A stretch of DNA of 64,000 nt from an uncultured virus (IMG/VR IMGVR_UViG_3300030101_004109) (taxonomy: Duplodnaviria > Heunggongvirae > Uroviricota > Caudoviricetes), in IMG/VR virus record IMGVR_UViG_3300030101_004109, one strand, 5' to 3'. A model generated the notes under the pieces. The model had not been told where the DNA came from and did not search any database. It worked only from the letters and a program-made list of their open reading frames with translations. This document shows, piece by piece, positions 1 through 62,230 of the stretch (its first letter is position 1; each line of letters begins with the position of its first letter). The position numbers and the translations under genes are program-made.

Positions 1-369
1 GTTCGCATGACTATTGGCCCTAAAAACATAAAGACGCCTTTTATTCACCAGTTAGTTCTTTTGGCTTTTGTGGGGCCTCGTCCCGAGGGTTACCTAACGC
101 GCCATTTAGACGGATGCCCTCAGAACAATGTCATATGTAACCTAGCCTGGGGTACTTACAAGCAAAATGCAGATGATAGAAAGGTTCATGGAACGAATAA
201 AGTCGGCGAGGATAACCCCAATAGCAAGATAACAGAAGATATAGTAAGAGAGATTCGAGTTTTGTGCAAAGGTTCTTTAAAGCAAAGAGAAATCGCCGCT
301 AGATTCGGCATATCCCAACAGGAAGTTAGCCAAATAAAGCGGCGATTGATTTGGAAGCACGTAGATTAA
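1..369 (+). CDS. HNH homing endonuclease with C-terminal HTH (probably 5'-truncated)
   Basis: IHQLVLLAFVGPRP...RHLDG..NN...NLAWGT..N..D HNH signature; C-terminal QREIAARFGISQQEVSQI HTH; frame open to window edge. Confidence 0.85.
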   Translation, partial: VRMTIGPKNIKTPFIHQLVLLAFVGPRPEGYLTRHLDGCPQNNVICNLAWGTYKQNADDRKVHGTNKVGEDNPNSKITEDIVREIRVLCKGSLKQREIAARFGISQQEVSQIKRRLIWKHVD

Positions 370-1340
370 AAGATGCTGACCTTGTTAGAGGGTAGCGCCA
401 AATCTTGCGGAAGCTGAGTTCCCGCCCCTCCTGGCCTGGATGCAAGCGTTTCTGCCTGCAGGGGGCTGGATGGCTTCGGGTTACGGTTGGGGTACTTAGT
501 TAGCATCCGGCTTTCGATGATTTCATCAATCTCTTTGATGTCATTATCGGTAGCGTTGGGGTTAGCCGACAGGAACCCTTGCATCAGTCGGTAGTAATCA
601 TCCATGGCCTGATCGTACCTTTCGTCGCCAACCATGTGAGGCATCGCAGACTCGAAAAGCTGCACGGCCTTTTCTACTTCGTACTGCTCCGTCTGTTCCC
701 GAAGCTGTTTCAGTTCATGCTGCAGCTTACGGTTTGCTTGCCGTTCGCGCATAATATGCTCGTTAAGCTGGCCCTGGTAGTGGTTGTGAACCGCTTTTTC
801 TCTACCTTGAAGCTGTTGGGCAAACTCAGCCAGCTTACGGTTATGCTGGTAGAACTGATTTGCTTCTTGCGTTCTTTGGTTAAGCCGCTGGTTGAACTGG
901 TTCAGCCGTCCACCCAAAGACTGAAGCTGGGTTTTATAACCCGTCTCCAGCGCTTTGAATCGATCGTCTGCTGTGGCGTCTTCGGACGAAGCCGATTCCA
1001 GAGAGTTTAGCGTTTCTGCTAATCGCTGCTGCATGGACTGGACTTGCTCATACGCGGCGTCGAGCTGGCGGCTTTTCTGCGATTGCGCCGTAGTATGCTT
1101 ATGCAAAGCAGCAGTAGCATTATTTCTAACTCTTTCGTAGCCAGAGGTAATAGCACTTCTGACATTTTCGTCCAGACCGCTAAACCACTCCTGCTCGTTT
1201 AAGCTGGGTAGTTCCCCATTCCAGTTATAGTCAACCGGCGCAGAAGGCGCTTCGGCCACTTCTGCTTGTACCGGGGTTTCTACGGGGGCGGCTTCGACTG
1301 AACCTAAATCGGAAGGGGTGTTTGGTTGCTCGTCCGACAT
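366..1340 (-). CDS. Putative capsid scaffolding protein
   Basis: Acidic Pro/Ala N-terminus and long Gln-rich coiled coil; last gene of the terminase-portal operon; strong RBS AAGGAGA; function inferred from context. Confidence 0.55.
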   Translation of the reverse strand: MSDEQPNTPSDLGSVEAAPVETPVQAEVAEAPSAPVDYNWNGELPSLNEQEWFSGLDENVRSAITSGYERVRNNATAALHKHTTAQSQKSRQLDAAYEQVQSMQQRLAETLNSLESASSEDATADDRFKALETGYKTQLQSLGGRLNQFNQRLNQRTQEANQFYQHNRKLAEFAQQLQGREKAVHNHYQGQLNEHIMRERQANRKLQHELKQLREQTEQYEVEKAVQLFESAMPHMVGDERYDQAMDDYYRLMQGFLSANPNATDNDIKEIDEIIESRMLTKYPNRNPKPSSPLQAETLASRPGGAGTQLPQDLALPSNKVSIF

Positions 1341-1367
1341 TATATCTCCTTTAACTTTTACGGCTGG

Positions 1368-1814
1368 TCAGACCATAGGAACTTTGTTGGCGTTGCCCTG
1401 TCCCTGAGTAGTCTTAATCAGGTTAACCAGATCGTCAACCATATCAGGACTAGCAGCAAGTGCGGCGAGTAGACCTTCCATGCCCCCGGCCTGCTCCATA
1501 AGACCAGACTTTTCAAGGAAGCTCATAAGCTCCTCTTCGGTGACGCCTGCCTTTTCGGCAAGTTCTGCGGCGGTCATCATCTTAGCAGGCTTAGCGGCAG
1601 GCTTGTCGGCAGTTTCAACAGCAGCAGTTTCGACTGCTTCTTCTTCAACTGCGGGCATTTCGGCCTTTGGCCCAGCATCTTTCATCATCGGTTCAGCCAT
1701 TTTAGCTCCTTTCGCTTTAGGCTTACTTGGGGTTATTAACACATCACTTGTGTCGGTGTTCATAACCTTATTGATAAGGTCACGAACTTCTTCATAGCTG
1801 GGGTTTTGGGCCAT
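1368..1814 (-). CDS. Hypothetical protein (low-complexity, possible HTH MTAAELAEKAGVTEEEL)
   Basis: GAGG RBS, fits operon spacing. Confidence 0.6.
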   Translation of the reverse strand: MAQNPSYEEVRDLINKVMNTDTSDVLITPSKPKAKGAKMAEPMMKDAGPKAEMPAVEEEAVETAAVETADKPAAKPAKMMTAAELAEKAGVTEEELMSFLEKSGLMEQAGGMEGLLAALAASPDMVDDLVNLIKTTQGQGNANKVPMV

Positions 1815-1828
1815 AGCTATGCCTCTTG

Positions 1829-2221
1829 TCAGAGAGTTTTAAGGTCTTTTACAGGGCGGTTAGCAAATCTCTTTGCTATTTGAGGAGAGCGAGCGGCGTA
1901 GTCTTTCACAACTTTGTGCCTAAGCTCCTCAATTTCTACTTTTCTTTTGTACGCATTAACTGGTTCTACGCGAAGGCTTTCTGCCGATTCGCCCACATGC
2001 GTTCTCGCCATACCGGCCAGCATACGCTTTTCTTCTGCTTTAGACGAGATTATCTTTTGGCCATTGTGGTACGGACGGAAAAGCTGGAAGGTTGAGCCCG
2101 ACGCGCCGCCTTTTGACAGTCTGCGGGTCATTTCTGTATCGCAGCACACAGGCACAGGTTCGTCGTCAAACGCTTCGTCTATGCTTCTGCAACTTGTGCA
2201 AATGAATCCTATCAATAGCAT
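1829..2221 (-). CDS. Zinc-ribbon (FmdB-like) protein
   Basis: CTSC...CCDTEMTRRLS motif; such genes commonly follow phage portals. Confidence 0.6.
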   Translation of the reverse strand: MLLIGFICTSCRSIDEAFDDEPVPVCCDTEMTRRLSKGGASGSTFQLFRPYHNGQKIISSKAEEKRMLAGMARTHVGESAESLRVEPVNAYKRKVEIEELRHKVVKDYAARSPQIAKRFANRPVKDLKTL

Positions 2222-2231
2222 GTAATACTCT

Positions 2232-3881
2232 TTATTCCTGCGCCATTTGGGCGACCTGTTCTTGGTTGGGGCTCCCGTCTGCCGGGTCTACTTCGGCTGC
2301 CTGATCTGACGCTTCTGCCATTTGTTCTATCGCAGGAGGCGCTGGTTGTCCAACAGGTTCGGGGCTGTACATTGTAGAAGGTATACCAAAACCTTCCATA
2401 ATAATTTCGTAGAACTCTCGTTGATTAATGTTAGGGTTATTCATGAGCAAGTTGCTCATTTTGCCCACGACATCAGCAAGTAGCTGCGGATTGTTTTTGA
2501 TAGGTGAGTAAGGCGCAATATCGAAGTGGCCGTCAAAGTGCTGAAGGTCAATCTGGTCTAAGTCCGAGAAGGTGTCTCGGTGCTTCACAGTGTAGGGGCC
2601 CTGTCCGTATTTCTGCAGCAGGCGCATACAGCGTTCGCCCACGCGGCTAATCGCAGCCCGGAAGTTACCTTCGCGGAAAGCAACCCTGTCTCGGGCATAC
2701 GCTGAAATATCTGCGGCTTCGCGGGCTGTACGAATATTTTGTGCGGCCCCTCTCGATTGCGCTGTCAGACCCGACACAAACTGGGCGTCTCCGATCATGA
2801 TTTCGCGCGCCCTAAGTAACTGTGGGTCGAGGTTCGCTGTGGGCGTAGGAATGAACGCCTGCTCTAAGGGAGTTCCTTGAGGGCTGGTGCGCCTAATCGG
2901 AGTGTAAGACCCTGCAGGAGCATGGTAGGCTTTGGCTAAGTCGCCCATGTCAACCACACCCGAATCAACCATAATCCGGGGTAGGATTCGGTGAATGACT
3001 TGGTGCATGGTGGTGTTGATATTATTGATGGCTTCCTGCTGGGGGATAATCAGCTCCAGCTCAGAAAGGCCGTCCAAGTTACGTAAGTTATGGTTAAGGC
3101 TAAACATAGAGATTGGCTGGTCGTCAATCTCGCCTTCCCAAATAATAGTGTTGCTGGTTTCGTGCCAATGGTAAGCACGCATACCAATCATGTCGTAGAT
3201 TTCCCAGACAATAGCAATACCGAAAACTTCGTCTACAAAGCGTTGGTCTGACTGATCGCCACTAACAGCCCACTGAGGAGTAGTATCTGGCCGGACAGGT
3301 TCGGAAAGCTTACCGGGTCTTTTGTAAACTCCCAACTCTACCCGCTTTTTAAACATACGCCAGGGCATTTCTACCATGTGCGTCCAGAAGCGAGATTCCT
3401 TATGGGCTTTTGCCGCTGGGTCGTACCCAACGTGGCTAGGCTCTAACGCAAAGATTTGAGGCTTTTTATTGATTGGGTCGATAATAGTTTTAAATATGCC
3501 GCGTCTTTTAGTAAGGGCATTGTCTAGCGCAATACCACAAAGCTCCCGCATATCGTTTTCGCGAAAAACTTCGTTAATCAGATGCGTGATTCTGCCTTGA
3601 ATAGCGTGCGCTTCCGGCGTGTGCCCATTTGCGGCTACAGCTACTTCTTGTCCCAGCAAGAGAAACTTAGCCGTTTCAACGGCAGTAAAGAATAAGTTTA
3701 CGCTACTACGGGGGTCATCATGAAACTGTTTGCCCCGTGCCGAGCTTCTGCCGTCTAAGTGAAAAAACTCTCCATTATAGAATCTTTCTATCTTAGCAAA
3801 AAGAGCTTTTTCTTTGCCCAAGTAATGCCTTTTGTGCTGGCTAACCAAAACTTTGATATGGTTGGTATTCATGAAGTCCAT
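2232..3881 (-). CDS. Portal protein
   Basis: 549 aa directly downstream of TerL; GIFK, GLSELELIIPQQEAINN and VSGLT...RG...TARE portal-like motifs; Pro/Gln-rich tail. Confidence 0.85.
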   Translation of the reverse strand: MDFMNTNHIKVLVSQHKRHYLGKEKALFAKIERFYNGEFFHLDGRSSARGKQFHDDPRSSVNLFFTAVETAKFLLLGQEVAVAANGHTPEAHAIQGRITHLINEVFRENDMRELCGIALDNALTKRRGIFKTIIDPINKKPQIFALEPSHVGYDPAAKAHKESRFWTHMVEMPWRMFKKRVELGVYKRPGKLSEPVRPDTTPQWAVSGDQSDQRFVDEVFGIAIVWEIYDMIGMRAYHWHETSNTIIWEGEIDDQPISMFSLNHNLRNLDGLSELELIIPQQEAINNINTTMHQVIHRILPRIMVDSGVVDMGDLAKAYHAPAGSYTPIRRTSPQGTPLEQAFIPTPTANLDPQLLRAREIMIGDAQFVSGLTAQSRGAAQNIRTAREAADISAYARDRVAFREGNFRAAISRVGERCMRLLQKYGQGPYTVKHRDTFSDLDQIDLQHFDGHFDIAPYSPIKNNPQLLADVVGKMSNLLMNNPNINQREFYEIIMEGFGIPSTMYSPEPVGQPAPPAIEQMAEASDQAAEVDPADGSPNQEQVAQMAQE

Positions 3882-5686
3882 CCAGCGCCGGGAGCCCAGG
3901 GATTATCGGAGTCCCCGTTAAGTCTCCTACGGCGCTTTCTCAAATTGTTGTCTAGCGTTGCCATTCTCATTCTAAGTTCAGCGTCCGCCAAAAGACTTAG
4001 GTTAGCTTCTTGTTCTTTAAGCCTATCGCGAAGCTCGGAATCTGTCAAGTGTCTTGGCCAGTTCAGCCTTGTTAGCGCCCAAGCAGCAATAATATACGTT
4101 CGAGCTAGGTCAAAGTGCGATGTGTTCTTACCTTTAGATATACGTCTATCTCTGTTTTTACCGTCAAAGTTGATTAGCTGCTGGATCCCGGTAAGACTAT
4201 TTATCTTAATGTCGTGGCTATTAAGGGCAACTTCCATATCGCCCTCGGCTTCTTGAATACTTTTTGATGTTGCGCGCCACCCTGGTTCTGTTCTGCCCGA
4301 TTTGTGCGTTTGGTGCCATACATTATACAAGTCTTCATTAATAGCAATACCGAGTAACGCCGCAGCATTGGACTCAATCACAACAGTATTGCCCCTGCTT
4401 TTGCCCGCTTGTCTGTATACCTGTGTAGCTTGGGCTAAAATAGCATGGAGTTCAGTTGGCTGAAAGCGGCCTTCTACGGAAGCTACTTCTTCCCAGCTAC
4501 TAACGTCAAAAACAGAAACAGCGGAATAGTCGCCCTGCGATCCGAAGTTAGCCGGGTCCACACAGAACATGTAAAAGCGTCTGGGGTTGGGTGGAACAAA
4601 CTCCCAAAGACCCGACTTGCCTTTTTGCTCGTCCCCTTTAAGCGCCCCATCTTTTAGCAAGCGTAAATATTCTGCCGCCTTTCCTGCGTAAATCTTATTG
4701 CTTTGTGTAAGCCAGCCGTCTGTGGGTCCTGGGGGGTACTTATTATCAAACCGTTCTGGCCTGTTATCAAAGGTAGCAGGAAGCGCGGCCCTTCTAAAAT
4801 ACATATGGTGCCGGGTAGCACCTTTAAGCTGGGCCACAAGTCCCAGTTCTTCTTCGGTAAGCGGGCCTAGTTCAACTGGGTCTCCGGTTTCTTCATCTAA
4901 CAAACGTCTACGTTTGTCAAGCCACCATTCAAGGAAGAGTGGTTTCCATCGCGTCGGTTGACCGGGAGGAGGATTCCAAATACTTAACCACAATCTGTTA
5001 AGACGACTACCCCAATCTCCCGGCGTTGTTTCAAGGACAACTCTAGCATTTGGCCGAGACTCTACAGCAGGGAACAGTTTTTCCTGCAATCTACCAAAGG
5101 TATCATCGTCCATTTCACAGCCTTCTGTGATATGAACCCTGTCTCGGGACTTACCAACACCGGGAGACTTAGATCCAACTGTGATAGAGGTAATCTGATT
5201 GCCGTTGGCAAACTCAATGCGTTCTCGTGTAGCCTTAGTTCCTTTCTTCAAAGGGTTTTTAAGCACTTCTGGCAGATTGTCTAAAGCGTAAATAATACGG
5301 TCCATGATTTCGTCGCAGGTGTCTCTATCCTGAGCAACGATGGCCGTCTTAATAGCCTCGCCATACATAGTGTCTCTTAGCATAAGAAGGCACACAATAG
5401 TAGAAATCATGGCCTGTCTGTACTTACTTACGTACAGCCATCGGTTATCTTGGTACGCTTGGGCCACTCGCATCTGGGCTGGAGTAGGGTCAAGCAGGGC
5501 TTTTTGGCCTTCGTTTGTTTGAATGTAGCAAGCGCGGATAAAAGAATCTGGTGCAGCAAAAAGTAAGTCTACGTGAAGCTTTTTTGCCTGATCAACCGGT
5601 TCTCCGCTTTCATTTCCATACCAAAGCTTCATCCCTTTCGGGAGTCCCTTTAGTGCAATATTGGCTAGGGCCTTGTTATAGTCCAT
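3869..5686 (-). CDS. terL: Terminase large subunit
   Basis: KYRQAMIST (variant Walker A), VHITE (Walker B), ETTP coupling motif, nuclease CVDPA..GDYSA, IESN. Confidence 0.9.
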   Translation of the reverse strand: MDYNKALANIALKGLPKGMKLWYGNESGEPVDQAKKLHVDLLFAAPDSFIRACYIQTNEGQKALLDPTPAQMRVAQAYQDNRWLYVSKYRQAMISTIVCLLMLRDTMYGEAIKTAIVAQDRDTCDEIMDRIIYALDNLPEVLKNPLKKGTKATRERIEFANGNQITSITVGSKSPGVGKSRDRVHITEGCEMDDDTFGRLQEKLFPAVESRPNARVVLETTPGDWGSRLNRLWLSIWNPPPGQPTRWKPLFLEWWLDKRRRLLDEETGDPVELGPLTEEELGLVAQLKGATRHHMYFRRAALPATFDNRPERFDNKYPPGPTDGWLTQSNKIYAGKAAEYLRLLKDGALKGDEQKGKSGLWEFVPPNPRRFYMFCVDPANFGSQGDYSAVSVFDVSSWEEVASVEGRFQPTELHAILAQATQVYRQAGKSRGNTVVIESNAAALLGIAINEDLYNVWHQTHKSGRTEPGWRATSKSIQEAEGDMEVALNSHDIKINSLTGIQQLINFDGKNRDRRISKGKNTSHFDLARTYIIAAWALTRLNWPRHLTDSELRDRLKEQEANLSLLADAELRMRMATLDNNLRKRRRRLNGDSDNPWAPGAGWTS

Positions 5687-5776
5687 AAGATCGCTCGATT
5701 TTGGTGTGGTTGACTACGGCTCGACGCCATGTTACCTATTATTCTCCCACCTATTGTCCGTCAACTGGGGCTCGCT

Positions 5777-6142
5777 GTGGCAGGTAAATACTCTCACATA
5801 GACCGCAAAGTCACAAAACAAATGTACAGTGCGGCTAAAAATGCTTTAGAAGAACGGGCAGAAACCCCTAAGTCTAAACGTGGGGGCCTCGATCCAGCAG
5901 AAGCGCGAAAGCAAGGTATTGATAGCGGCGTAACTCGTGCGCGTCAAATCGTGTCTGCCTGGAAAAATAATAAGCCTTTGTCGTTTGAAACGTGGCGCAA
6001 GGTAGCAGCGTTTAGCCGGTTTGATAACCGCCCTCCTTCTACTAAGATTCGGCAGGCTCGTGGCTTGTGGGGCGGTAAGGGCGGAACGGCTCGTGCCCGA
6101 AAGATTATGAAGCAGAAGAAAGCGGCGGATAAAAGTAAATGA
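5777..6142 (+). CDS. Small basic protein (likely GTG start at 5777)
   Basis: GVTRARQI...LSFETWRKVAAF...LWGGKGG pattern seen in phage head-region proteins; K/R-rich. Confidence 0.6.
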   Translation: MAGKYSHIDRKVTKQMYSAAKNALEERAETPKSKRGGLDPAEARKQGIDSGVTRARQIVSAWKNNKPLSFETWRKVAAFSRFDNRPPSTKIRQARGLWGGKGGTARARKIMKQKKAADKSK

Positions 6143-6618
6143 CAGCTTTAGCCCCCGTAGTTGATCTGACATGGATTAACGACGACGAGATTTTAAATAA
6201 CCTTGAAGTCATGGTCCGTCAAGGCATGTCGGTGGATCAGTGCGCCCGCATACTTGATTTGCAGGCGTCTGCTGTAGCTTTTGTCTTACAGTCAAACCCC
6301 AAGATTAAAGCCGCTTCGTTGCAGGCAGTTGACTACACACGACATAATATTACCCGCAAAGTTGTAAATAAGTCTGACAGTGTTTTAGATGTATTATACG
6401 ACATAGTTCATTCTTGCGATGAAGACGTTGTAAAAACGCGAGACAGAATCGCTGCAGCTAACTTGTACCTTAATGCTGCGGGGATGATCGGTAATAAGGC
6501 GGCCGAAGCTGAAAAGCGGATGAACCCCGAACAGAAACAAAGTACCGAGCAAGATAAGACTGCCCAGTTTATTCTTGACCGGCTGATTGACCGAGCAGTT
6601 GAGGCTAGTAATGAGTAA
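6139..6618 (+). CDS. Probable terminase small subunit
   Basis: N-terminal HTH-like segment; DRIAAANLYLNAAGM resembles TerS oligomerisation helices; next to terL. Confidence 0.55.
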   Translation: MTALAPVVDLTWINDDEILNNLEVMVRQGMSVDQCARILDLQASAVAFVLQSNPKIKAASLQAVDYTRHNITRKVVNKSDSVLDVLYDIVHSCDEDVVKTRDRIAAANLYLNAAGMIGNKAAEAEKRMNPEQKQSTEQDKTAQFILDRLIDRAVEASNE

Positions 6619-7021
6619 TTACACAAAGCCAGGATTAAGAAAACGAATCGTCGCTCGGGTTAAGGCCGGTAGTAAAGGCGGAAAGCCCGGTCAATGGTCT
6701 GCGCGTAAAGCTCAAATTGCTGCACAACGCTATAAGAAAGCAGGCGGCGGCTATAAAAAAGGCGGCAAGACAAAAAAACAGAAAGCTCTAAAAAAATGGA
6801 CTAAGCAAAAGTGGCGCACAGCATCAGGCAAAAAATCTGTTCAAGGCAAAAAAGCGAGTGGCGAAGTGTACGCACCTAGTAAAACTATATCTAAGTTAAA
6901 ATCTACAGCGGCAGGGCGTAAAAAGCTGGCCGCAGCCAACAGAAAAAAGCGGGCCGCCACGAAAAAAGGCAAGCAGTACGCGAAGCACGGGTTACACAAG
7001 GGGAAGAAACGATCTGCGTAG
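6611..7021 (+). CDS. Very basic DUF5872-like protein
   Basis: YTKPGLRKRI...GSKGGKPGQWSARKAQ...YKKAGGGY motif (family recalled, not searched). Confidence 0.75.
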   Translation: MSNYTKPGLRKRIVARVKAGSKGGKPGQWSARKAQIAAQRYKKAGGGYKKGGKTKKQKALKKWTKQKWRTASGKKSVQGKKASGEVYAPSKTISKLKSTAAGRKKLAAANRKKRAATKKGKQYAKHGLHKGKKRSA

Positions 7022-7029
7022 GAGATCCC

Positions 7030-7740
7030 GTGGGCCAGCTGAACGCAAATATGCCTTATATTCAATGCTTTATTAGAAAGGAGTTTACAGGATTAGAAGA
7101 AGATGTGATGGGTTACATATTTGGAGTTAAGTCTATGCTTAACCGCCCTTTACATTTTCACTTCCAAACTCGATTTGGTGCGACGATGTGGAACATGCCC
7201 GTGTCCGCATTTGTAAACAAAAAAGATTATGACAGGCTAGCTAAAGATGAGTCAACTCGTCTGCAGCTGCTTGAATCGTGGGATTGCCAAAGCAATAACA
7301 TAGCAGTTACCACATTTGCTTTTTTGCAAAATAAACGAGTTGATGTGTTTTGCAGAGATAAGAAGTGGCGTTCGGGTCAGTACATGACTACGATTGATGA
7401 CTACGAGGGCGACCTTAACGAGTTAAACGTAGGGTACTCTAACGACCAAGATAGTAAGTGCTTTCATTTCATTTGCTTAGATGATGGTAACTTCTGTGTG
7501 CAGCCTAACAATCTTTTGCGCTGGCACAACCCTGATTTCATAGTTCCTTACTCGAAAGATAGCCCTCCCCGATTTAACATTAATAGCGAGCAGTATTCCA
7601 GCGAAGATATTGACCGCTCTTATGGTAACTCGCCCTACTGGTTCTATGGATTTTACGATAAGCCCGGCGAGTTTACTAAGTCCGACGCGCCCCTTTCTGA
7701 CTGCGGCCAAAAATCAAAGAAGGCTACGAGCAAGAAATAG
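7030..7740 (+). CDS. Conserved phage hypothetical protein
   Basis: LNANMPYIQCFIRKE...ESWDC...LDDGNFCVQPNN; AGGAG RBS before GTG. Confidence 0.7.
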   Translation: MGQLNANMPYIQCFIRKEFTGLEEDVMGYIFGVKSMLNRPLHFHFQTRFGATMWNMPVSAFVNKKDYDRLAKDESTRLQLLESWDCQSNNIAVTTFAFLQNKRVDVFCRDKKWRSGQYMTTIDDYEGDLNELNVGYSNDQDSKCFHFICLDDGNFCVQPNNLLRWHNPDFIVPYSKDSPPRFNINSEQYSSEDIDRSYGNSPYWFYGFYDKPGEFTKSDAPLSDCGQKSKKATSKK

Positions 7741-7768
7741 CGCCCTCGTGTACAGAAATAATAATCTG

Positions 7769-7797
7769 TTGCCACAAAGCTCACGACTTGTTATAGT
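7769..7797 (+). promoter_or_regulatory. Sigma70-type promoter of capsid operon
   Basis: TTGCCA-N17-TATAGT with extended -10 TG. Confidence 0.7.
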
Positions 7798-7908
7798 TGG
7801 GGCGAGCGTTCCGAGTGACGGGTAGCCACAGTTAATGGTCCGAGTAGCTACGGGTAGACGCGGGAATAGCATCCCTTCCCTTCCTACCTATAACGAAAGG
7901 ACTAAACA

Positions 7909-8991
7909 ATGTCGTTTAGCACCCAAGACGTTCTGAACACCGTCAAGCGTACTTTTGACGGTAACGTCCTCCGCAACGTGATCGAAAAAGAACCCATCTT
8001 TGAGGAAATGCTCAAGCTTGAAAAGTTCTCCAAGGCCCAGCAGGGTGGAGATACGCTTGAGTCGACCATCATTGACTCTGCCGGTGTTACCGGTATGAAG
8101 TTTGTGTCGGGCCTTGAACAGCCTGAGCGCCGCGTGCATCAGATCACCAAGAACTACAAGGTCACTCGACAGGTTCTTGGCGGCGATATGGTCTTCTCCG
8201 ACATGGAAGAACGTACCTTGCGCCAGGACCGCGCTGCCCTTGCTTCCAAGGCTAAGGAACTTCACACCCATCTTTACGCATGGATTCTGCGTGACCTTGG
8301 TTCGTGGTTCCTGTCCGGTAAGTCCACCGGTGCTGTCTTTAGCGACAGCGACCTTCGGGACCTTCTGACCCTTAACGGTCAGATCAACAGCGGTACTCTT
8401 ACCGGTACCATCAACGGTCTTCTGTCCTTTGAAGCCCCGGCTACTCAGATTGGTACTGGGGCTCTGGTTGAAAACCTTGCCCGTCAGGCTGACATTCACT
8501 TCAACCAGTGTGAGGCAGTTTCGGCTTTCCCCACCGATGGTTTCAAGCAGATGCAGAAGGCGTACCTTCTCGCTAAGCGTAAGGATGTTGAGGGCAACGG
8601 CCCGACTCTCGCAGTTGGTGACCTTGCTTCCTATCTCAACCTTCTGGAGCATGTGCGGTCGCAGGTTCGTGTCACTTCGGACCTTGATCAGCTTACGGGT
8701 AACAGCTTCCAGACCGCTTCGTTCGGTCCCATGAAGATTACTTACTCCGAGTACATCGACCCGGCTAACTACTCTGCTCATGCAGGTAACTTCGACCCGT
8801 CGAATGGTCTCTTCATGTTCCTTAGCCCCCAGTACATCCAATACTTCACCCTTCTTACGAAGATGATTGAAGTCGCTGACTGGAAGCCTTCGGATACTCA
8901 GCGTGCCCACGTTTGTCGCTTCGACATCGACGGCAACTTCCTTGTCCGTAACCTTCCTGCCTTCGCAACTGTTGTCAACACCGCAAGCTGA
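7909..8991 (+). CDS. Major capsid protein
   Basis: 360 aa, strongly biased codon usage, own promoter and AAAGGA RBS; GGDTLE, INGL and MFLSPQYI motifs typical of HK97-fold coats. Confidence 0.8.
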   Translation: MSFSTQDVLNTVKRTFDGNVLRNVIEKEPIFEEMLKLEKFSKAQQGGDTLESTIIDSAGVTGMKFVSGLEQPERRVHQITKNYKVTRQVLGGDMVFSDMEERTLRQDRAALASKAKELHTHLYAWILRDLGSWFLSGKSTGAVFSDSDLRDLLTLNGQINSGTLTGTINGLLSFEAPATQIGTGALVENLARQADIHFNQCEAVSAFPTDGFKQMQKAYLLAKRKDVEGNGPTLAVGDLASYLNLLEHVRSQVRVTSDLDQLTGNSFQTASFGPMKITYSEYIDPANYSAHAGNFDPSNGLFMFLSPQYIQYFTLLTKMIEVADWKPSDTQRAHVCRFDIDGNFLVRNLPAFATVVNTAS

Positions 8992-9019
8992 TAACAAGTA
9001 AAACTTCAAGGAGCATAAA

Positions 9020-9526
9020 ATGGCTGCAAGACTTTTTCCTTTTGCTCGCGCTATCGTTGATTTCAAGGTCACTGATACGTGGGATCCTGCCGGTACCGAC
9101 CATCGTAAAGACGAGTGGATCGGTGGCGTTTACTACGACTACGATGCTACTGATGGCTACCTCGTCTACCGCTGTGTGAAGAACACCTCTTCTGCCACTA
9201 TTGGTAGTGGTCTTATGGTTACCACCGAAGCGGGTGAAACTAACATTGACCATGTCATCATCGGGGCCGCTACTCAGCATCGTCCTCGTGTTCGTGGCGT
9301 TACCGTTAGTTCTATTGCTGTGGGCCATTGTGGATTCGTTATCTGCAAGGGTAAGGCAACGGCTAAGAACACTACCGGTTCCGTTATTGCGGCTAACGCT
9401 GCTATTAAGACCGTGGCTAACGGTCTTATCGATGACGCTGTTATCGGCACCGATGCTATTATCGGCAGTAACTTTGCTGAGATTGCTGATGGCGCTTCCG
9501 GCAAGGTCTATCTAGACGTTCTGTGA
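9020..9526 (+). CDS. Capsid decoration/cement protein
   Basis: Follows MCP with the same codon bias; beta-rich GV...IA....GFV..KG pattern. Confidence 0.6.
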   Translation: MAARLFPFARAIVDFKVTDTWDPAGTDHRKDEWIGGVYYDYDATDGYLVYRCVKNTSSATIGSGLMVTTEAGETNIDHVIIGAATQHRPRVRGVTVSSIAVGHCGFVICKGKATAKNTTGSVIAANAAIKTVANGLIDDAVIGTDAIIGSNFAEIADGASGKVYLDVL

Positions 9527-9544
9527 TTAAAGCGTAAATCGCCT

Positions 9545-9618
9545 GGGGTGTTTGGTTCCGCTCGTCCGACGCCTCTCCGCCCCCGGTCTGTGTGTGGTTG
9601 CATAGATCGGGGGCTTTT
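9545..9618 (+). ncRNA. Candidate 3'UTR-derived antisense RNA against the translation start of 366..1340
   Basis: 9545-9570 matches 1315-1338 at 24 nt with a 2-nt insertion, plus TCTCC complementary to that gene's SD; abuts the terminator. Confidence 0.6.
9579..9618 (+). terminator. Rho-independent terminator of capsid operon
   Basis: GCCCCCGGTCTGTG / CATAGATCGGGGGC stem followed by TTTT. Confidence 0.85.
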
Positions 9619-9637
9619 ATCTTGGGGAAACTAAAAG

Positions 9638-10519
9638 ATGGCCGAGCCAACCGTTCAGCAGTTAGTTGATATGTACGCCAACGTACCTCGAACCGAGGTT
9701 GAGATGGAAGGCGCCGTTGTGCGCGGCCAGATCCCCAAACCTGTTTATAGAGACGGCGTTAATTTAGACGTTTCTATGGTTGGCGATAAGTTTGTACACA
9801 TTGGAAAGTTATCTGAGCTAGAAAATATTATAGGTTCTTTTAGCCCTTCTTACAAAGAACTGGGTCGGCGCGTTGACCCTTCTATGCGCGCGGTTCACTC
9901 CGAGCTTGCAGAGTTACGAAAACGACGAGTCGCAGAATCGGACGAATACAAAGATGGTAAGATTGTAGCCTATGGTTCTGGTGTGGGCACGCGGCATACA
10001 AATGATCCTATGGAATACTACGGAATGGATGTGCTGACTCCTGTTGGCGCGGGGGCATTTCTTGTAGTAGGGGCAAGCGCAGGAAAAGACGAGCAAGGAA
10101 ATGATATACCTATTATTGTATATCAAGATAGCGGTAAAATAGGTGAAGGCAAAAGAGCCATAGGAGCCGCCGGTCCTTATGGCGGGGATCTTGCTTTAGG
10201 CTACCGCTACCCTTCTGCCGAAGACAAATCTTATTTTACTTCTGGCGCAGACGGTTTTGGGTTTCACAATCAATACATTGTACCCCGCTCTAAGATTATT
10301 GATTACCCGTTTGACCCTTCTGTAAATGTGGGCCTCGAAGCATCACGTAACTACGGGCAAGACTTCTCAGAAAGAATCGCCCCTGAACCTATCCCACCGC
10401 CTCCTGTACTGGCTCCAATGCCCCCTCCGGCTGCTATGCCTGTAGAACTAGACGAGCCGTCCATGTACGATCGACCGTACAGAAGTCCGTTCCGTACTAT
10501 GTACAAAAAAGGAAACTGA
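9638..10519 (+). CDS. Hypothetical, putative internal head protein
   Basis: N-terminal TVQQLVDMY tag; late operon position. Confidence 0.6.
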   Translation: MAEPTVQQLVDMYANVPRTEVEMEGAVVRGQIPKPVYRDGVNLDVSMVGDKFVHIGKLSELENIIGSFSPSYKELGRRVDPSMRAVHSELAELRKRRVAESDEYKDGKIVAYGSGVGTRHTNDPMEYYGMDVLTPVGAGAFLVVGASAGKDEQGNDIPIIVYQDSGKIGEGKRAIGAAGPYGGDLALGYRYPSAEDKSYFTSGADGFGFHNQYIVPRSKIIDYPFDPSVNVGLEASRNYGQDFSERIAPEPIPPPPVLAPMPPPAAMPVELDEPSMYDRPYRSPFRTMYKKGN

Positions 10520-10520
10520 T

Positions 10521-11303
10521 ATGCCGACCGAAGGTAAACTATACACTATGGATATGTTGAATCGTATCGCTCAGGGTGAGTTTGATGACGATTTACGCAC
10601 GGCTAATATGATTGAAGCGGGTATCGATCCTACCCGCGCTAGAAAATATGCAGTAGACTCAAAGCGTTTAGCTATGGACTACTGGCACCCTAATTCGTCT
10701 TATAGGTCTCCAGACAGATTGAATCTCTCATATGCCGTTCGTAACCCCAGTTTATCTGTCCCCGCAGATGTTGTTGCAGGCATCAACATAGCTAGCCAAC
10801 GGGCTGATGACCGAGGGGGCATGTTTCCAACCAGACAAAACTATGCAAAATACCTTAATGAAGGTTATCCCGGCGCACCGGGGGAAGATTACGTAAAGGC
10901 TATTCAAGATAGAATTGATTTAATAGATTTTGCGCTTCCTGAAGGCTACGATGGCTCAGAACGCTATATGAGAGAAGCGGATTTGTCTCGGCGTATGGGT
11001 GAACCGCTTACAGAAGAAGTAAGACTTGTTGAAGTAAAAAGAGATTTAGAAAGTAGGCTGGGCAACTTTAAAGAATCAAGACAGCGTTATTTTGCAGAAT
11101 CTCTACCTAACAGTAATCTACCTTTTTTCAGCTCTCCTGAGTTTGTTACCACTCTTGCTTCTGCTATGCCTTACACAAAAGGAGAAGATTTTAGAGACAT
11201 GAAACGCGCTTTGTACAGACGCTACGAACTAGTAAATAGAGACGCTGAACCGTATGCTACTGATGAACCTATAGAATATTTAATGAAGTTATATAGTCAA
11301 TAA
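10521..11303 (+). CDS. Hypothetical, putative internal head protein (paralog of 12380..13207)
   Basis: DRIDLIDFALPEGYDGS block shared with 12380. Confidence 0.6.
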   Translation: MPTEGKLYTMDMLNRIAQGEFDDDLRTANMIEAGIDPTRARKYAVDSKRLAMDYWHPNSSYRSPDRLNLSYAVRNPSLSVPADVVAGINIASQRADDRGGMFPTRQNYAKYLNEGYPGAPGEDYVKAIQDRIDLIDFALPEGYDGSERYMREADLSRRMGEPLTEEVRLVEVKRDLESRLGNFKESRQRYFAESLPNSNLPFFSSPEFVTTLASAMPYTKGEDFRDMKRALYRRYELVNRDAEPYATDEPIEYLMKLYSQ

Positions 11304-11310
11304 TCTTTGG

Positions 11311-11339
11311 TTGATCAGTTCAAAGACTTTGGTTATACT
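11311..11339 (+). promoter_or_regulatory. Sigma70-type internal promoter
   Basis: TTGATC-N17-TATACT in the only sizeable intergenic gap of the cassette. Confidence 0.5.
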
Positions 11340-11395
11340 ATCGTCGAAGCCGAAGCTGCTGCCGCCCTCGCCGCCCTACTCTAAAGGATAAGATA

Positions 11396-12373
11396 ATGTC
11401 TGATGAAATGACTGCTGAAGAACTGGTTACATTGTATAACACGTATCGTCCTTCCCCCGCAGGAAGACCCGTTACAGGCTATGTACGACAGCCATATGAG
11501 GGTGCTCCTAAAGGCTACGGGGTGGGTAGAAGTGGAGATCCAGATGCCGGACCTACCAGAGAAGAAGTAGCGGCTGCTACGGCAACAGGCCAAAACTATA
11601 TCTATACACAAGATATGTCAGGCATAGACACCCGCCGCACTTTACCTCATGAACAAGTTTTATATAAGTATTTTGGTAGGGCAGCACCTGTAAAAGCTAT
11701 TGAAGCGGCTCAGCTTTTTGACTATGATAACACCTACGTATATGAGCCCTCCCTGGACATTGAAACTCACGAAAAAATTTACGAACCATTTAGAACTCAG
11801 TATTATACGCAAGATTTAAGCCCCGCTTTGCAGGCGGCCATAAGAAGAGAGCAAGCGCTTGCCGCCAAAGAAGACTCTGAATTTGGCGGCTACATAGAGC
11901 TGTACTCTCGTGATTATGAAGATATGCGTAAAGCCAGAACTGATAAGCTTAGGCAGCGGGCTTTATTAGAACTAGATGCTATGTATCCTGGAATTGTTGA
12001 TATAGGGCGTACCCGCATAGGCGAAAATGCCCGCGAAGACTTCCGCCCTTATGGTATAGCGGGGATAAGCTACGGCATGAAGGGCGATCATAAACAACTT
12101 TTAATCGACGATATTAAAGAGTTGGCTGAAACTCATGTTAGCGGTTTTGAGTCGGGCAATCCGCAGTTTTACACTCAGCGTCCCGGTTATGCCGGTGAGA
12201 CTTTACTAGACGAAGCGCGCCGAACCCTTACGTACTTTAGGCAAATGTACCCTGAAGACGCCCAAAGCGCGAGATTGCTTGGACGTTATATCAATGATGT
12301 AGAAGCTAAGTATCCCATGATGCAGGGCGCAACTGAGTTTCCTGCCCGATCTGATCTGCCCAACAAGGAATAG
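11396..12373 (+). CDS. Hypothetical, putative internal head protein (paralog of 13609..14415)
   Basis: N-terminal MTAEELVTLY tag. Confidence 0.6.
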   Translation: MSDEMTAEELVTLYNTYRPSPAGRPVTGYVRQPYEGAPKGYGVGRSGDPDAGPTREEVAAATATGQNYIYTQDMSGIDTRRTLPHEQVLYKYFGRAAPVKAIEAAQLFDYDNTYVYEPSLDIETHEKIYEPFRTQYYTQDLSPALQAAIRREQALAAKEDSEFGGYIELYSRDYEDMRKARTDKLRQRALLELDAMYPGIVDIGRTRIGENAREDFRPYGIAGISYGMKGDHKQLLIDDIKELAETHVSGFESGNPQFYTQRPGYAGETLLDEARRTLTYFRQMYPEDAQSARLLGRYINDVEAKYPMMQGATEFPARSDLPNKE

Positions 12374-12379
12374 AGAATC

Positions 12380-13207
12380 ATGGCTGACATGAGAAATCGT
12401 CGTTTGTACCGTAGTGGCATGGAACCTGTGCCTGGAAAGCGTAGCATTACTGCCGAAGAGTTGGTAGAAATGTACACTTCGGGCATGGAATCGCCTAGAG
12501 AAAGTATGCCTCTCGATGGCTATTACTCTCGTTTTGTAGATCCTGAAGTTTTAGGGCCTGCTCCTGCCCAGCCTGCACGTTCTATGCCCCCCGAACCTAA
12601 GCGGCCCGTTATGTACTATTCGCCTAAGATGGGTCGGAATGTTCCTGCGGGGCAAATCTATAACGAGGCAAGAGAAGCTAATAGGGCTATCGTGGATCTA
12701 ATGATGCAAGGAGCGCCCGTTTATAGCTACTATGATTACGGCTTGGGCTCTGAAGATGAACCATTAATGCCCGGTGCTACTAGATACAAAGCAGGTATGG
12801 GTTCCTCTAACTTACCTTTTGATCCCGGCTATGATGAAAGTCTTTACGATAGCACGGCGGCTGACAGCGCCCTACAACTTGGAAGTGTTGTTCCTCAGTT
12901 GCGCTACAGAGATAGCAAAAAAATAAACGCTCCTCCTTTCAGCTCTCCTTTTTACTACGATAGAGTTAAGATGATCATGGAAGAGTTGCCTAAAGGGTAC
13001 TACGGCTCTGCCCAACATCTAGCCGACGAAAAACGTAGAGAAGCTACAGGAGAAGTTACGCCAAATCTGCATCTTGCCCGGATGGCGGGTCTATTAATGC
13101 GAAAGTCTGGGGTTGAACCTAGTGCAGCTTTTTTTGAGGATGTAACACGTAATGTTTTCTTTGACCCTGAAAGCTACGTCGGCCCCCCTTCTTTTGAGGA
13201 AAAATAA
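12380..13207 (+). CDS. Hypothetical, putative internal head protein
   Basis: ITAEELVEMY tag near the N-terminus. Confidence 0.6.
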   Translation: MADMRNRRLYRSGMEPVPGKRSITAEELVEMYTSGMESPRESMPLDGYYSRFVDPEVLGPAPAQPARSMPPEPKRPVMYYSPKMGRNVPAGQIYNEAREANRAIVDLMMQGAPVYSYYDYGLGSEDEPLMPGATRYKAGMGSSNLPFDPGYDESLYDSTAADSALQLGSVVPQLRYRDSKKINAPPFSSPFYYDRVKMIMEELPKGYYGSAQHLADEKRREATGEVTPNLHLARMAGLLMRKSGVEPSAAFFEDVTRNVFFDPESYVGPPSFEEK

Positions 13208-13209
13208 TC

Positions 13210-13602
13210 ATGCCTAATGAAATGACTGCCGAAGAACTTGTCAAACTGTATGCGCCTAAAGTGCCCACGGCTGCGGGGGGTATTGATAGTTTAGAAGAAA
13301 CTAACAAAAGAAAAGTCAGAAGAGACATTAGGCGAGGGCAGCGGCAAGGATTCGGCCCTAGCAGTTCTTATGGGCGTGATACAAAAGAGCTAATTCGCGC
13401 TTTTGACGGTGTGACTACGCCAGCTCAAGAATTAATGTCTAAATATCGTAGTGGCGCTAAAGATAGTCGTGCGTCTTTTATGGCCCAGCAACAAGAGCTG
13501 TTTAACGCTAGACGAGACGCAGATATGAAGGCTCAGCAAGATGCTGCTTTAGCCCGTATAAGAGCTGCAAAAGCGGTAGAAGCCAAAAAAGCAAAGGAAT
13601 AG
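13210..13602 (+). CDS. Hypothetical, putative internal head protein
   Basis: N-terminal MTAEELVKLY tag; basic. Confidence 0.6.
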   Translation: MPNEMTAEELVKLYAPKVPTAAGGIDSLEETNKRKVRRDIRRGQRQGFGPSSSYGRDTKELIRAFDGVTTPAQELMSKYRSGAKDSRASFMAQQQELFNARRDADMKAQQDAALARIRAAKAVEAKKAKE

Positions 13603-14421: not shown

Positions 14422-14712
14422 ATGAGCTACGGAATGTATCAGCTTTCTAGAGAAGAACTTGCCGAAATAAACACCATTATCGGAGAGTTACGAAAAGCGT
14501 CTAAACTGCACGCGGGGCAGGCAGACCGGTTACAGGCTATCTACGACCGGTGCTCCGGGGATGACATGCGGCGTCCTATGCACATGAAACCCCCAGGCCA
14601 TCATAAGCCTCCTATGCACCATGAAGATGATGAAATGGTCACCATTATAGCCCTCTATGCGGGCGAAGGAGAAGGTTATGGCCCAATCCCCAATGTCCCG
14701 AGCACGTATTAG
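14422..14712 (+). CDS. Small hypothetical protein
   Basis: GGAG RBS; ELRKASKLHAGQADRL helix; His/Pro-rich linker. Confidence 0.55.
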   Translation: MSYGMYQLSREELAEINTIIGELRKASKLHAGQADRLQAIYDRCSGDDMRRPMHMKPPGHHKPPMHHEDDEMVTIIALYAGEGEGYGPIPNVPSTY

Positions 14713-61225: not shown

Positions 61226-61302
61226 TGGTGGGCCTTCTGGGGCTCGAACCCAGGACAATCCGGTTATGAGCCGGGTGCTCTGACCAACTGAGCTAAAGGC
61301 CC
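61226..61302 (-). tRNA. tRNA with CAT anticodon, likely Ile2 (reads AUA after lysidine); encoded CCA
   Basis: GGGCCTT acceptor, CT-CAT-AA loop, GTTCGAG T-loop. Confidence 0.9.
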
Positions 61303-61307
61303 TTATT

Positions 61308-61484
61308 CTATGTCGGGCACTCGATCATAGCGCCTTCTGTATAAGAGGGTTTCTTTCTTACTTCGACAGATCCTTCGGATGTTTCTACGATGCAAGTGTT
61401 ATCTTCACACCTGTCGATTACACATTTAGGCTTAATGGTTTCTGTCTTAGCTGTCAATGATGAAAACAAAAATAGTACAAACAT
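61308..61484 (-). CDS. 58-aa DUF3006-like protein with hydrophobic N-terminus (not in ORF track)
   Basis: TAAGGA RBS; MFVLFLFSSL...VIDRCEDNTCIVE. Confidence 0.55.
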   Translation of the reverse strand: MFVLFLFSSLTAKTETIKPKCVIDRCEDNTCIVETSEGSVEVRKKPSYTEGAMIECPT

Positions 61485-61504
61485 TTTATTTCCTTAGAAT
61501 TTAG

Positions 61505-61577
61505 TGGGTCCAGTGGGATTCGAACCCACGACCATCGGTTTAAAAGACCGGTGCTCTACCAACTGAGCTATAGACCC
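61505..61577 (-). tRNA. tRNA-Lys(TTT)
   Basis: Cloverleaf, CT-TTT-AA loop, GTTCGAATCC. Confidence 0.93.
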
Positions 61578-61581
61578 GAAG

Positions 61582-61664
61582 TGGGCGAGGCGGGAATCGA
61601 ACCCGCATGACCTACGGCCGGGAGATTTTAAGTCTCATGTGTCTACCAATTCCACCACTCGCCC
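61582..61664 (-). tRNA. tRNA-Leu(TAA)
   Basis: GGTGGAATTGGTAGACAC D-arm, CT-TAA-AA loop, long variable arm. Confidence 0.93.
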
Positions 61665-61670
61665 GTGGTA

Positions 61671-61886
61671 TCAGTCGCGGTCAATCCGCTGAATGATCAT
61701 AATGGTTTCGCCGTCTTCTACAATGTTGACGGGTTCCGTCCATTGTTTGTTTTCTTTTACATACTTTGTCAAGGCGGCGCCCTTTAGATCGGCTGGGACC
61801 TGTAGGATGCTGGCCCCACTCAGGTAGCCGAACGTGGTTCCGTCGTCAAGGATGATTACAAAATCGCTTTCCATTTTTCTCTCCAA
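61671..61886 (-). CDS. Hypothetical protein (start likely MESDF)
   Basis: GGAG RBS, between tRNAs. Confidence 0.55.
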   Translation of the reverse strand: MERKMESDFVIILDDGTTFGYLSGASILQVPADLKGAALTKYVKENKQWTEPVNIVEDGETIMIIQRIDRD

Positions 61887-61896
61887 TGAAGTTAAG

Positions 61897-61970
61897 CGCC
61901 CCGGATAGGGATCGAACCTATGACATTCGGCTTAGAAGGCCGATGCTCTATCCAACTGAGCTACCGAGGC
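61897..61970 (-). tRNA. tRNA-Arg(TCT)
   Basis: Cloverleaf, CT-TCT-AA loop. Confidence 0.93.
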
Positions 61971-61979
61971 AAAAAGGTA

Positions 61980-62033
61980 GCACACTTTAACCGGTGTGCC
62001 AGCGATGTTCTTCCATCCACCCCGTAGAACATC
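61980..62033 (-). ncRNA. Structured RNA motif, copy B
   Basis: 8-bp stem with CGGGGTGG in its loop, then CGCTG and a GCACAC/GTGTGC hairpin. Confidence 0.6.
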
Positions 62034-62150
62034 ACAGAGGACTGAGATCGAGGGATCAGTCTTATGACAGGTATTTGACTGGCACCATTTTTCAGTCTAC
62101 AGGTTAACTAAAAAACAGGGTATTACTTTTACATCATACCCCAAAAGAGG

Positions 62151-62230
62151 GGCACACTTTAACCGGTGTGCCAGCGGCTTTGGCTGCTAACCCCCTATCC
62201 CCCAGGAGCCACCCCGCAAGGTTAGCAGCC
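62151..62230 (-). ncRNA. Structured RNA motif, copy A
   Basis: 11-bp stem with CGGGGTGG in its loop, then the same 25-nt element as copy B. Confidence 0.6.

Follow-up and report, generated by a model that had tools for sequence, protein, structure and literature searches.

The 3′UTR of the capsid operon of an uncultured marine tailed phage carries a segment complementary to the translation start of a putative scaffolding protein gene, which belongs to another operon, transcribed divergently. From this arrangement, first noticed in a sequence-only reading of the DNA, we tentatively suggest that the capsid-operon 3′UTR might repress the putative scaffold start by antisense pairing in trans, a proposal to which we give somewhat less than even weight. 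Its general form is held more cautiously still: the tail of a tailed phage's capsid message would act as a trans antisense RNA on the scaffold ribosome-loading site, and RNA, in place of protein autoregulation, would couple coat and scaffold output. A second reading, in which the segment is kept as part of a recombination linker, comes close to the antisense one, and both chance and decoy or DNA-level models trail behind.

The window, by which we mean the whole stretch of DNA analyzed (64,000 nucleotides), is part of the phage genome and has a G+C content of 46.8%. No cultured relative was found among 50,697 phage records, either by DNA or by tblastn with the portal and capsid proteins. As presented in Table 1, a minus-strand operon runs from the large terminase gene through the portal gene and two small genes to a 324-aa gene, the putative scaffold gene. 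Plus-strand genes begin 42 nt from the terminase start, with four small genes first, followed by a 169-nt gap, the 360-aa capsid gene, a 168-aa gene, a 111-nt gap and then a long run of plus-strand genes. Since the called genes from 5729 to about 12 kb are all on the plus strand and none is on the minus strand, the transcript expected over the capsid 3′UTR has the antisense polarity.

Several other features of the window were recorded along with this layout. An HNH endonuclease gene at 7-369 on the plus strand (PHROG 59, E 1e-25), possibly encoding a homing endonuclease, converges on the putative scaffold gene with a 4-nt overlap at the stop codons. Within the gene 6587..7021, which matches phrog_17747 and phrog_14910 and, just under threshold, DUF5872, about 58 nt (6660-6717) are common to many otherwise unrelated contigs in all four runs compared, with a depth spike to 110 in X3 and unrelated loose ends on either side; this stretch looks like a widespread short conserved module. 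Between the small genes and the capsid gene lies a gene for a 236-aa protein (7030-7740, plus strand), which matches phrog_3704 ('ferredoxin', auxiliary metabolic gene class) at E 1e-42. Further downstream, consecutive plus-strand genes have near-identical 5′ ends with a ...TGCYGAAGA... motif (11393-11437, 11459-11489, 12446-12474, 13207-13251 and 14517-14547), which suggests a paralogous structural gene family. Four tRNA genes (Met, Lys, Leu and Arg; 61226-61970, minus strand) adjoin a 35-nt direct repeat, the copies of which (61970-62004 and 62142-62176) are 89% identical.

A consensus scan placed a promoter-like site upstream of the capsid gene; such matches were not over-represented (17 found, 13.5 expected). 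Among the contigs of an RNA library, one matched 7813-7977 without differences, just downstream of this site, and two were partial matches in the 6665-6717 motif. The exact contig hints weakly at transcription of the capsid gene, and no more than that because contigs cannot show RNA ends. The same library (RNA run X21), prepared from the sample of a DNA run (X2) that contains the phage, had zero contigs at the UTR, which counts neither way, and among the runs listed with the phage, none was an RNA run.

Table 1. Coordinates of the features discussed in the text, with the evidence or description for each.
Feature	Coordinates	Strand	Basis or description
Putative scaffolding protein gene	366..1340	-	Gln/Glu-rich coiled coil of 324 aa; closes the terminase-portal operon
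Target site on the putative scaffold mRNA	1305..1349	-	Shine-Dalgarno GGAGA 1345-1349, ATG 1338-1340, codons 2-9 1314-1337
Portal gene, SU10-type	2232..3881	-	PHROG and Pfam matches; upstream in the operon that ends with 366..1340
Large terminase gene (TerL)	3869..5686	-	PHROG and Pfam matches; upstream in the operon that ends with 366..1340
Promoter-like site	7769..7797	+	TTGCCA-17-TATAGT with TG, upstream of the capsid gene; consensus scan
Major capsid protein gene	7909..8991	+	360 aa; AlphaFold and Foldseek; atlas score 0.98
168-aa gene, second of the capsid operon	9020..9526	+	Weak PHROG match 'virion structural protein', E 0.012
Invariant 112-nt block	9517..9628	+	Last 10 nt of 9020..9526 with its stop, 3′UTR and terminator, first bases beyond
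Antisense segment	9535..9578	+	Core 9545-9570, TAAATCG 9535-9541, anti-Shine-Dalgarno TCTCC 9574-9578
Predicted hairpin 2	9545..9575	+	Stems 9545-9555 / 9566-9575, 10-nt loop 9556-9565; minimum-free-energy fold
Intrinsic terminator	9579..9624	+	16-pair hairpin 9579-9614, then TTTTATCTTG (T-run)

The sequence-only reading had assumed a major capsid protein transcript here, and the predicted structure of the 360-aa protein confirms this identity. Using AlphaFold with a 69-sequence alignment, built after a profile search that yielded 80 relatives, we obtained a model with a pLDDT of 84.4, compared to 31 with an earlier 7-sequence alignment. The top Foldseek matches of the model were phage capsid proteins (VP1 1.6e-10, then Pa223, Sf14 and SU10 1.6e-9), with 348 matches in all at E≤0.001, pointing to an SU10-like HK97 fold; the protein has no match in Pfam or PHROG. 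The 324-aa gene is a putative scaffold gene. It follows the portal gene in the operon, the sequence of its product is helical, Gln/Glu-rich and of coiled-coil type, and a language-model lead from the atlas points to a Phage-scaffold cluster (0.90; 13% of the cluster members carry PF09306); together, these suggest that it encodes the scaffold. The protein has no relative in Pfam, PHROG or among solved structures and gave weak coiled-coil-type matches only, and homologues are present in the same operon in the relatives L020, L021 and L030. For the product of the second capsid-operon gene, nothing usable was found in Pfam, PHROG or solved-structure sequence searches beyond the weak match in Table 1. 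Different lineages carry different C-terminal thirds of this 168-aa gene (9186-9516), the exchanged part being abruptly bounded at 9517; it may encode an interchangeable surface domain in a head protein. A diversity-generating retroelement beside this variable C-terminus was rejected, as the window contains no template repeat.

The plus-strand sequence 9545-9570 (GGGGTGTTTGGTT-CC-GCTCGTCCGAC) equals 1315-1338 but for a 2-nt insertion (CC, 9558-9559), and the alignment is exact. The 1315-1338 stretch is the antisense of the first codons of the putative scaffold gene, CAT at 1338-1340 being the reverse complement of its ATG. The complement of the Shine-Dalgarno sequence, TCTCC, is found at both 9574-9578 and 1345-1349, and the terminator stem begins right after the former, at 9579. 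The site is a true 3′UTR, located between the stop codon of the second capsid-operon gene and the terminator, and it lies 8.2 kb from the scaffold start, the two being in divergent operons. All of this had been described in the sequence-only reading, and the similarity is wider than it had claimed. TAAATCG is present at 1305-1311 and at 9535-9541, a weaker match spans 1305-1349 and 9535-9578, and the copy extended in this way, down to 1305 on the target, covers the scaffold mRNA from the Shine-Dalgarno sequence to codon 13. The L008 lineage is without the TAAATCG extension. On DNA, the two copies are direct repeats, and on its minus strand the UTR has an SD-like GGAGAG and, after it, scaffold codons 2-4, without the ATG. 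No third copy of the antisense core was detected in the 64-kb window, where a search allowing up to 3 mismatches and no gaps matched the core only to itself.

Other ways of relating the two sites were rejected. A cis-encoded antisense RNA does not fit sites that are 8.2 kb apart, imperfectly complementary and not on opposite strands of one locus, and icaR-type intramolecular pairing of a 5′UTR with a 3′UTR does not fit a target gene that is transcribed from the minus strand, as a member of a separate divergent operon, and not part of the same mRNA. Deletion or inversion between the repeats was set aside because direct repeats flank the terminase, portal and capsid genes, and recombination would presumably delete essential genes. 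A minus-strand ORF running through the UTR (9459..9650, 63 aa) was also discarded: the terminator hairpin falls inside it, it runs into two other genes, and in L009 its start region is replaced.

We analyzed the predicted pairing of the UTR with the start regions of the phage genes, and the scaffold start was the best predicted target in both lineages holding both sites. For the 52 nt upstream of the terminator, the predicted duplex energy was -52.2 with the scaffold start versus -36.3 with the next of 119 candidate starts (mean -23.8, sd 5.2); the scaffold start was also the best site in the whole window on either strand, the UTR's own complement aside. When the unfolding costs were included, the cofold ddG reached -42.0 kcal/mol with the scaffold start versus -16.1 with the next of 66 genes, the mean of the other 65 being -5.9 (sd 3.6). 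In L008, in which the flanks differ, its own UTR and its own scaffold start gave -36.7 versus -16.9 for the next of 24 genes. In the predicted duplex, 13 bp are followed by a 2-nt bulge and then by about 12 bp that extend as far as a G.U at the start codon; past an internal loop, 5 further bp cover the Shine-Dalgarno sequence.

The UTR by itself is predicted to fold into a small hairpin 1, hairpin 2 and the terminator, with a fold z-score of -4.1. The loop of hairpin 2 holds the CC insertion, and this hairpin alone is predicted at -11.5 kcal/mol. With its 16 stem pairs, the terminator hairpin has the most among 19 terminator-like sites in 1-12500; no long repeat of it was found in the 64-kb window, and a pattern scan found it on one viral contig only. 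This hairpin stays intact in the predicted RNA dimer. A segment placed directly 5′ of a terminator that stays folded in the dimer has the anatomy of a 3′UTR-derived base-pairing RNA.

The conservation of both sites was followed in close relatives drawn from viral and metagenome contigs, among which capsid-protein and motif scans gave close lineages only. A pattern scan with the L014 scaffold start matched only L014 itself, a scaffold-alignment scan yielded nothing new and two genome-collection scans were empty; intermediate relatives are known as proteins (capsid 76%; scaffold 75-80% and 47%). On the target side, the 26 nt at 1315-1340 are invariant in the window and L006, in L003, and in L008, L001 and L002, with variable flanks. 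Between the window and L008, identity in the scaffold gene is 96% over the first 27 nt and drops to 58% over nt 28-100. An identity of at least 92% over the first 27 nt is present in 5 of 12 genes, and the peptide MSDEQPNTPSD is kept in all six full-length scaffold relatives (75-99% identity) bar one N7S change. Since conserved starts are common and the N-terminal peptide is conserved as protein, the target island needs no RNA explanation. The compensatory changes between the two sites that the sequence-only reading had proposed to look for had no variation to appear in: both sites are invariant wherever the DNA of a relative is readable, so no covariation is seen.

On the other side, the UTR is the most conserved non-coding stretch of the region. 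The 112-nt block that contains it is identical in the window and L006, L008 and L001, L009, and L007, with flanks that diverge or are replaced, and its boundaries are the same in three pairwise comparisons. Of 2901 aligned columns, 73.8% are invariant, and the block is their longest uninterrupted invariant run, ahead of one of 59 nt; the four UTR lineages are 82-90% identical pairwise over the shared 2.9 kb. In the comparison with L008, the UTR of the window shows 98% identity, versus 70-93% for the five other intergenic regions. No Rfam family matched 9517-9628, the search giving only two weak off-site hits below gathering scores. These observations bear on the duplication scar that had been named as the alternative: the UTR copy could still have arisen by duplication, but a neutrally decaying scar is excluded because the copy sits in a fully invariant block.

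The same block is the basis of the reading that comes closest to antisense repression, and which we regard as a real though doubtful possibility. The 112 nt would be a conserved terminator and mRNA-stability element that doubles as a homologous-recombination linker between exchangeable modules, joining the variable C-terminus of the 168-aa gene to a downstream gene that can be replaced, with an old scaffold-start copy inside that is kept because the whole linker is kept, and without regulatory pairing. Indeed, the block is placed at a mosaic junction and bounded by module swaps on both sides, with hypervariable coding sequence upstream (unalignable in L007), a different downstream gene in L009, and a contig of run X3 joining 9186 to 9517. 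The invariance takes in the terminator loop and hairpin 1, not the antisense segment alone, and other long perfect runs exist between the lineages (112 nt at 9786-9897 with L008, 159 nt with L009 and 216 nt with L007). Homogenisation by recombination would therefore explain the 112-nt invariance equally well, which counts against antisense repression. What a linker leaves without a reason is that a copy running from the Shine-Dalgarno sequence to codon 13 landed in the transcript-complementary orientation, and that perfect blocks of 13 and 11 nt survived amid differing surroundings. Moreover, repeated linker families differ from this element, which has no second copy of its core and no long repeat of its terminator hairpin in the window, and its terminator on one viral contig, and two late transcripts with a complementarity of -42 kcal/mol could hardly remain without effect on each other.

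One contig of run X3 has a variant UTR that bears small indels in 9531-9557, of which two fall within the antisense segment. Modelled with the indels only (substitutions left out) and against the window-type target, hairpin 2 went from -11.5 to -15.2 kcal/mol, and the predicted pairing weakened from -42.0 to a value in the range of -29 to -33, at which no other gene comes near it as a target. The strengthening of the local hairpin at the expense of pairing favours the linker and counts against the antisense proposal, for which the pairing retained by X3 speaks in turn. Among more remote phages, 12 distant relatives (capsid 26-29% identical) keep the divergent layout together with the capsid gene, a gene of about 170 aa and the terminator. 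L020 and L030, the only two of them holding both the gap and a scaffold homologue, showed no complementarity to their own scaffold start, which ranked 11 of 26 and 9 of 17 as a target. As these distant relatives share the layout and the terminator without the complementarity, the antisense feature is confined to one narrow clade, a distribution which also suits the linker. A GTGATACA motif lies right before the terminator hairpin after the capsid operon in L019 (6038-6103), L020 (11617-11682), L030 (9725-9778) and L027 (7027-7099), and is absent from the UTR of the window.

We also evaluated how far the match goes beyond chance. By itself, it is only marginally beyond it. When scored as in blastn-short, it comes 17th with 30.2 bits, within the 30-40 bits of the best matches in 10 random windows. 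With gap-tolerant scoring, it scores 47 and ranks 7th, and a top pair scoring at least 47 was held by 11 of 200 Markov-1 random windows (5.5%). These figures would suit a resemblance without common origin or function, the most striking of many coincidences in 64 kb, all the more as each site may be conserved for its own reason, the one as a gene start with its N-terminal peptide, the other as a terminator block. Against such a coincidence, the pairs that score above 47, and one tied with it, are tRNA-gene or other locally duplicated sequence, the next-best pair scores only 38, and TAAATCG and TCTCC extend the similarity beyond the core. By a rough, post hoc estimate, the antisense placement of a start against a 3′UTR is also a small share of the possible placements. 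Because the two copies fall precisely on a gene's translation start and within an untranslated 3′ tail, respectively, and are oriented so that their transcripts are complementary, we consider a chance origin unlikely, and improbable as the full explanation.

The least probable explanation, in our opinion a remote one, is that the copies act otherwise, as sites for a DNA-binding protein or through a minus-strand UTR transcript serving as a scaffold-start decoy that titrates a factor such as an autoregulating scaffold protein (for which P22 offers a precedent): the direct repeats, the SD-like GGAGAG with scaffold codons 2-4 on the UTR minus strand and a minus-strand promoter-like site in the second 112-nt perfect run would fit, but there are two copies only and no third in 64 kb, no minus-strand gene is called between 5729 and about 12 kb, promoter-like matches are not in excess of expectation (17 versus 13.5), and L009 keeps the UTR without the downstream gene that bears the site. 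The run in question (9786-9897) lies inside the gene 9638..10519, and the site it holds reads TTGTAA-17-TATAAT at 9855..9827.

Returning to antisense repression, the way in which the two sites are related and placed, the predicted pairing energies and target preference, the conservation at either site and the capsid identity lead us to propose the following mechanism. The capsid operon (7909..8991 and 9020..9526) would be transcribed from the plus strand and end at the terminator, giving a UTR-containing RNA that accumulates, either as the full mRNA or as a processed fragment keeping the terminator hairpin. In the cell, the 3′UTR would act in trans, pairing with the 5′-terminal part of the putative scaffold mRNA, whose gene lies 8.2 kb off on the other strand. 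Ribosomes would be kept from loading by this duplex, which might in addition be a substrate for RNase III, and synthesis of the probable scaffold would fall as the capsid mRNA accumulates. Some considerations count against this proposal. A full block of scaffold synthesis by an abundant capsid mRNA looks counter-intuitive, because procapsid assembly needs scaffold. In addition, the match is marginal when taken alone, the sites, being invariant, show no covariation, the feature belongs to a narrow clade and conserved gene starts are common.

If the proposal is true, a phage mRNA tail repressing another phage mRNA would extend bacterial 3′UTR cross-regulation to virion assembly, and an anti-start-site segment before the capsid-operon terminator would be a searchable signature in metagenomic phages. 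If the linker is the right reading, what we describe is a terminator of the usual kind located at a recombination junction, and long complementarities should be read as regulation only with caution. To our knowledge, the scaffold:coat ratio has been explained for no more than a few model phages, in which proteins set it. RNA-based control of scaffold synthesis was not found in the literature searched, and a term search of a 2025 review of phage sRNAs found neither 'scaffold' nor 'capsid' in the main text.

In phage P22, synthesis of the scaffolding protein is controlled by protein autoregulation, with the free scaffold protein as the effector. The present case would share with it a post-transcriptional limit on scaffold relative to coat, the effector here being an RNA made with the coat message. 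The c4 antisense RNA of phages P1 and P7 is phage-encoded, is not located opposite its target and masks a ribosome-binding site via short complementary blocks; it is processed out of the transcript that also carries its target, and its role is in the control of the antirepressor and of immunity. In contrast, the RNAs considered here come from divergent operons, and head assembly is concerned. The PeSL stem-loops of T4-type phages are conserved intergenic linkers at mosaic junctions, which occur in many copies per genome and carry early promoters. The 112-nt block resembles them as an invariant intergenic stem-loop element flanked by exchangeable modules; however, it is single-copy and ends a late operon, so that only its junction position fits a PeSL-like family.

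Closer in anatomy is CpxQ, a bacterial 3′UTR-derived base-pairing small RNA. NarS is another RNA of this kind (PMC7038943). As in these two RNAs, the candidate regulatory segment sits in a 3′UTR directly upstream of its own intrinsic terminator and is directed at the translation start of another operon. Unlike them, both RNAs here would be phage late messages from divergent operons, known from sequence alone, and the complementarity of about 24-30 bp is much longer than the 7-12 nt seed typical of NarS/CpxQ-type RNAs. Finally, CisR of Vibrio cholerae is reported to be a 3′UTR-derived sRNA from prtV that represses the cep mRNA of CTXphi (PMC13250501). It offers the likeness of a 3′UTR-derived RNA that pairs with a phage gene mRNA and limits phage production. 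CisR is host-encoded, Hfq-dependent and directed against a filamentous phage, whereas here the phage's own capsid-operon tail would act, on the putative scaffold message of a tailed phage.
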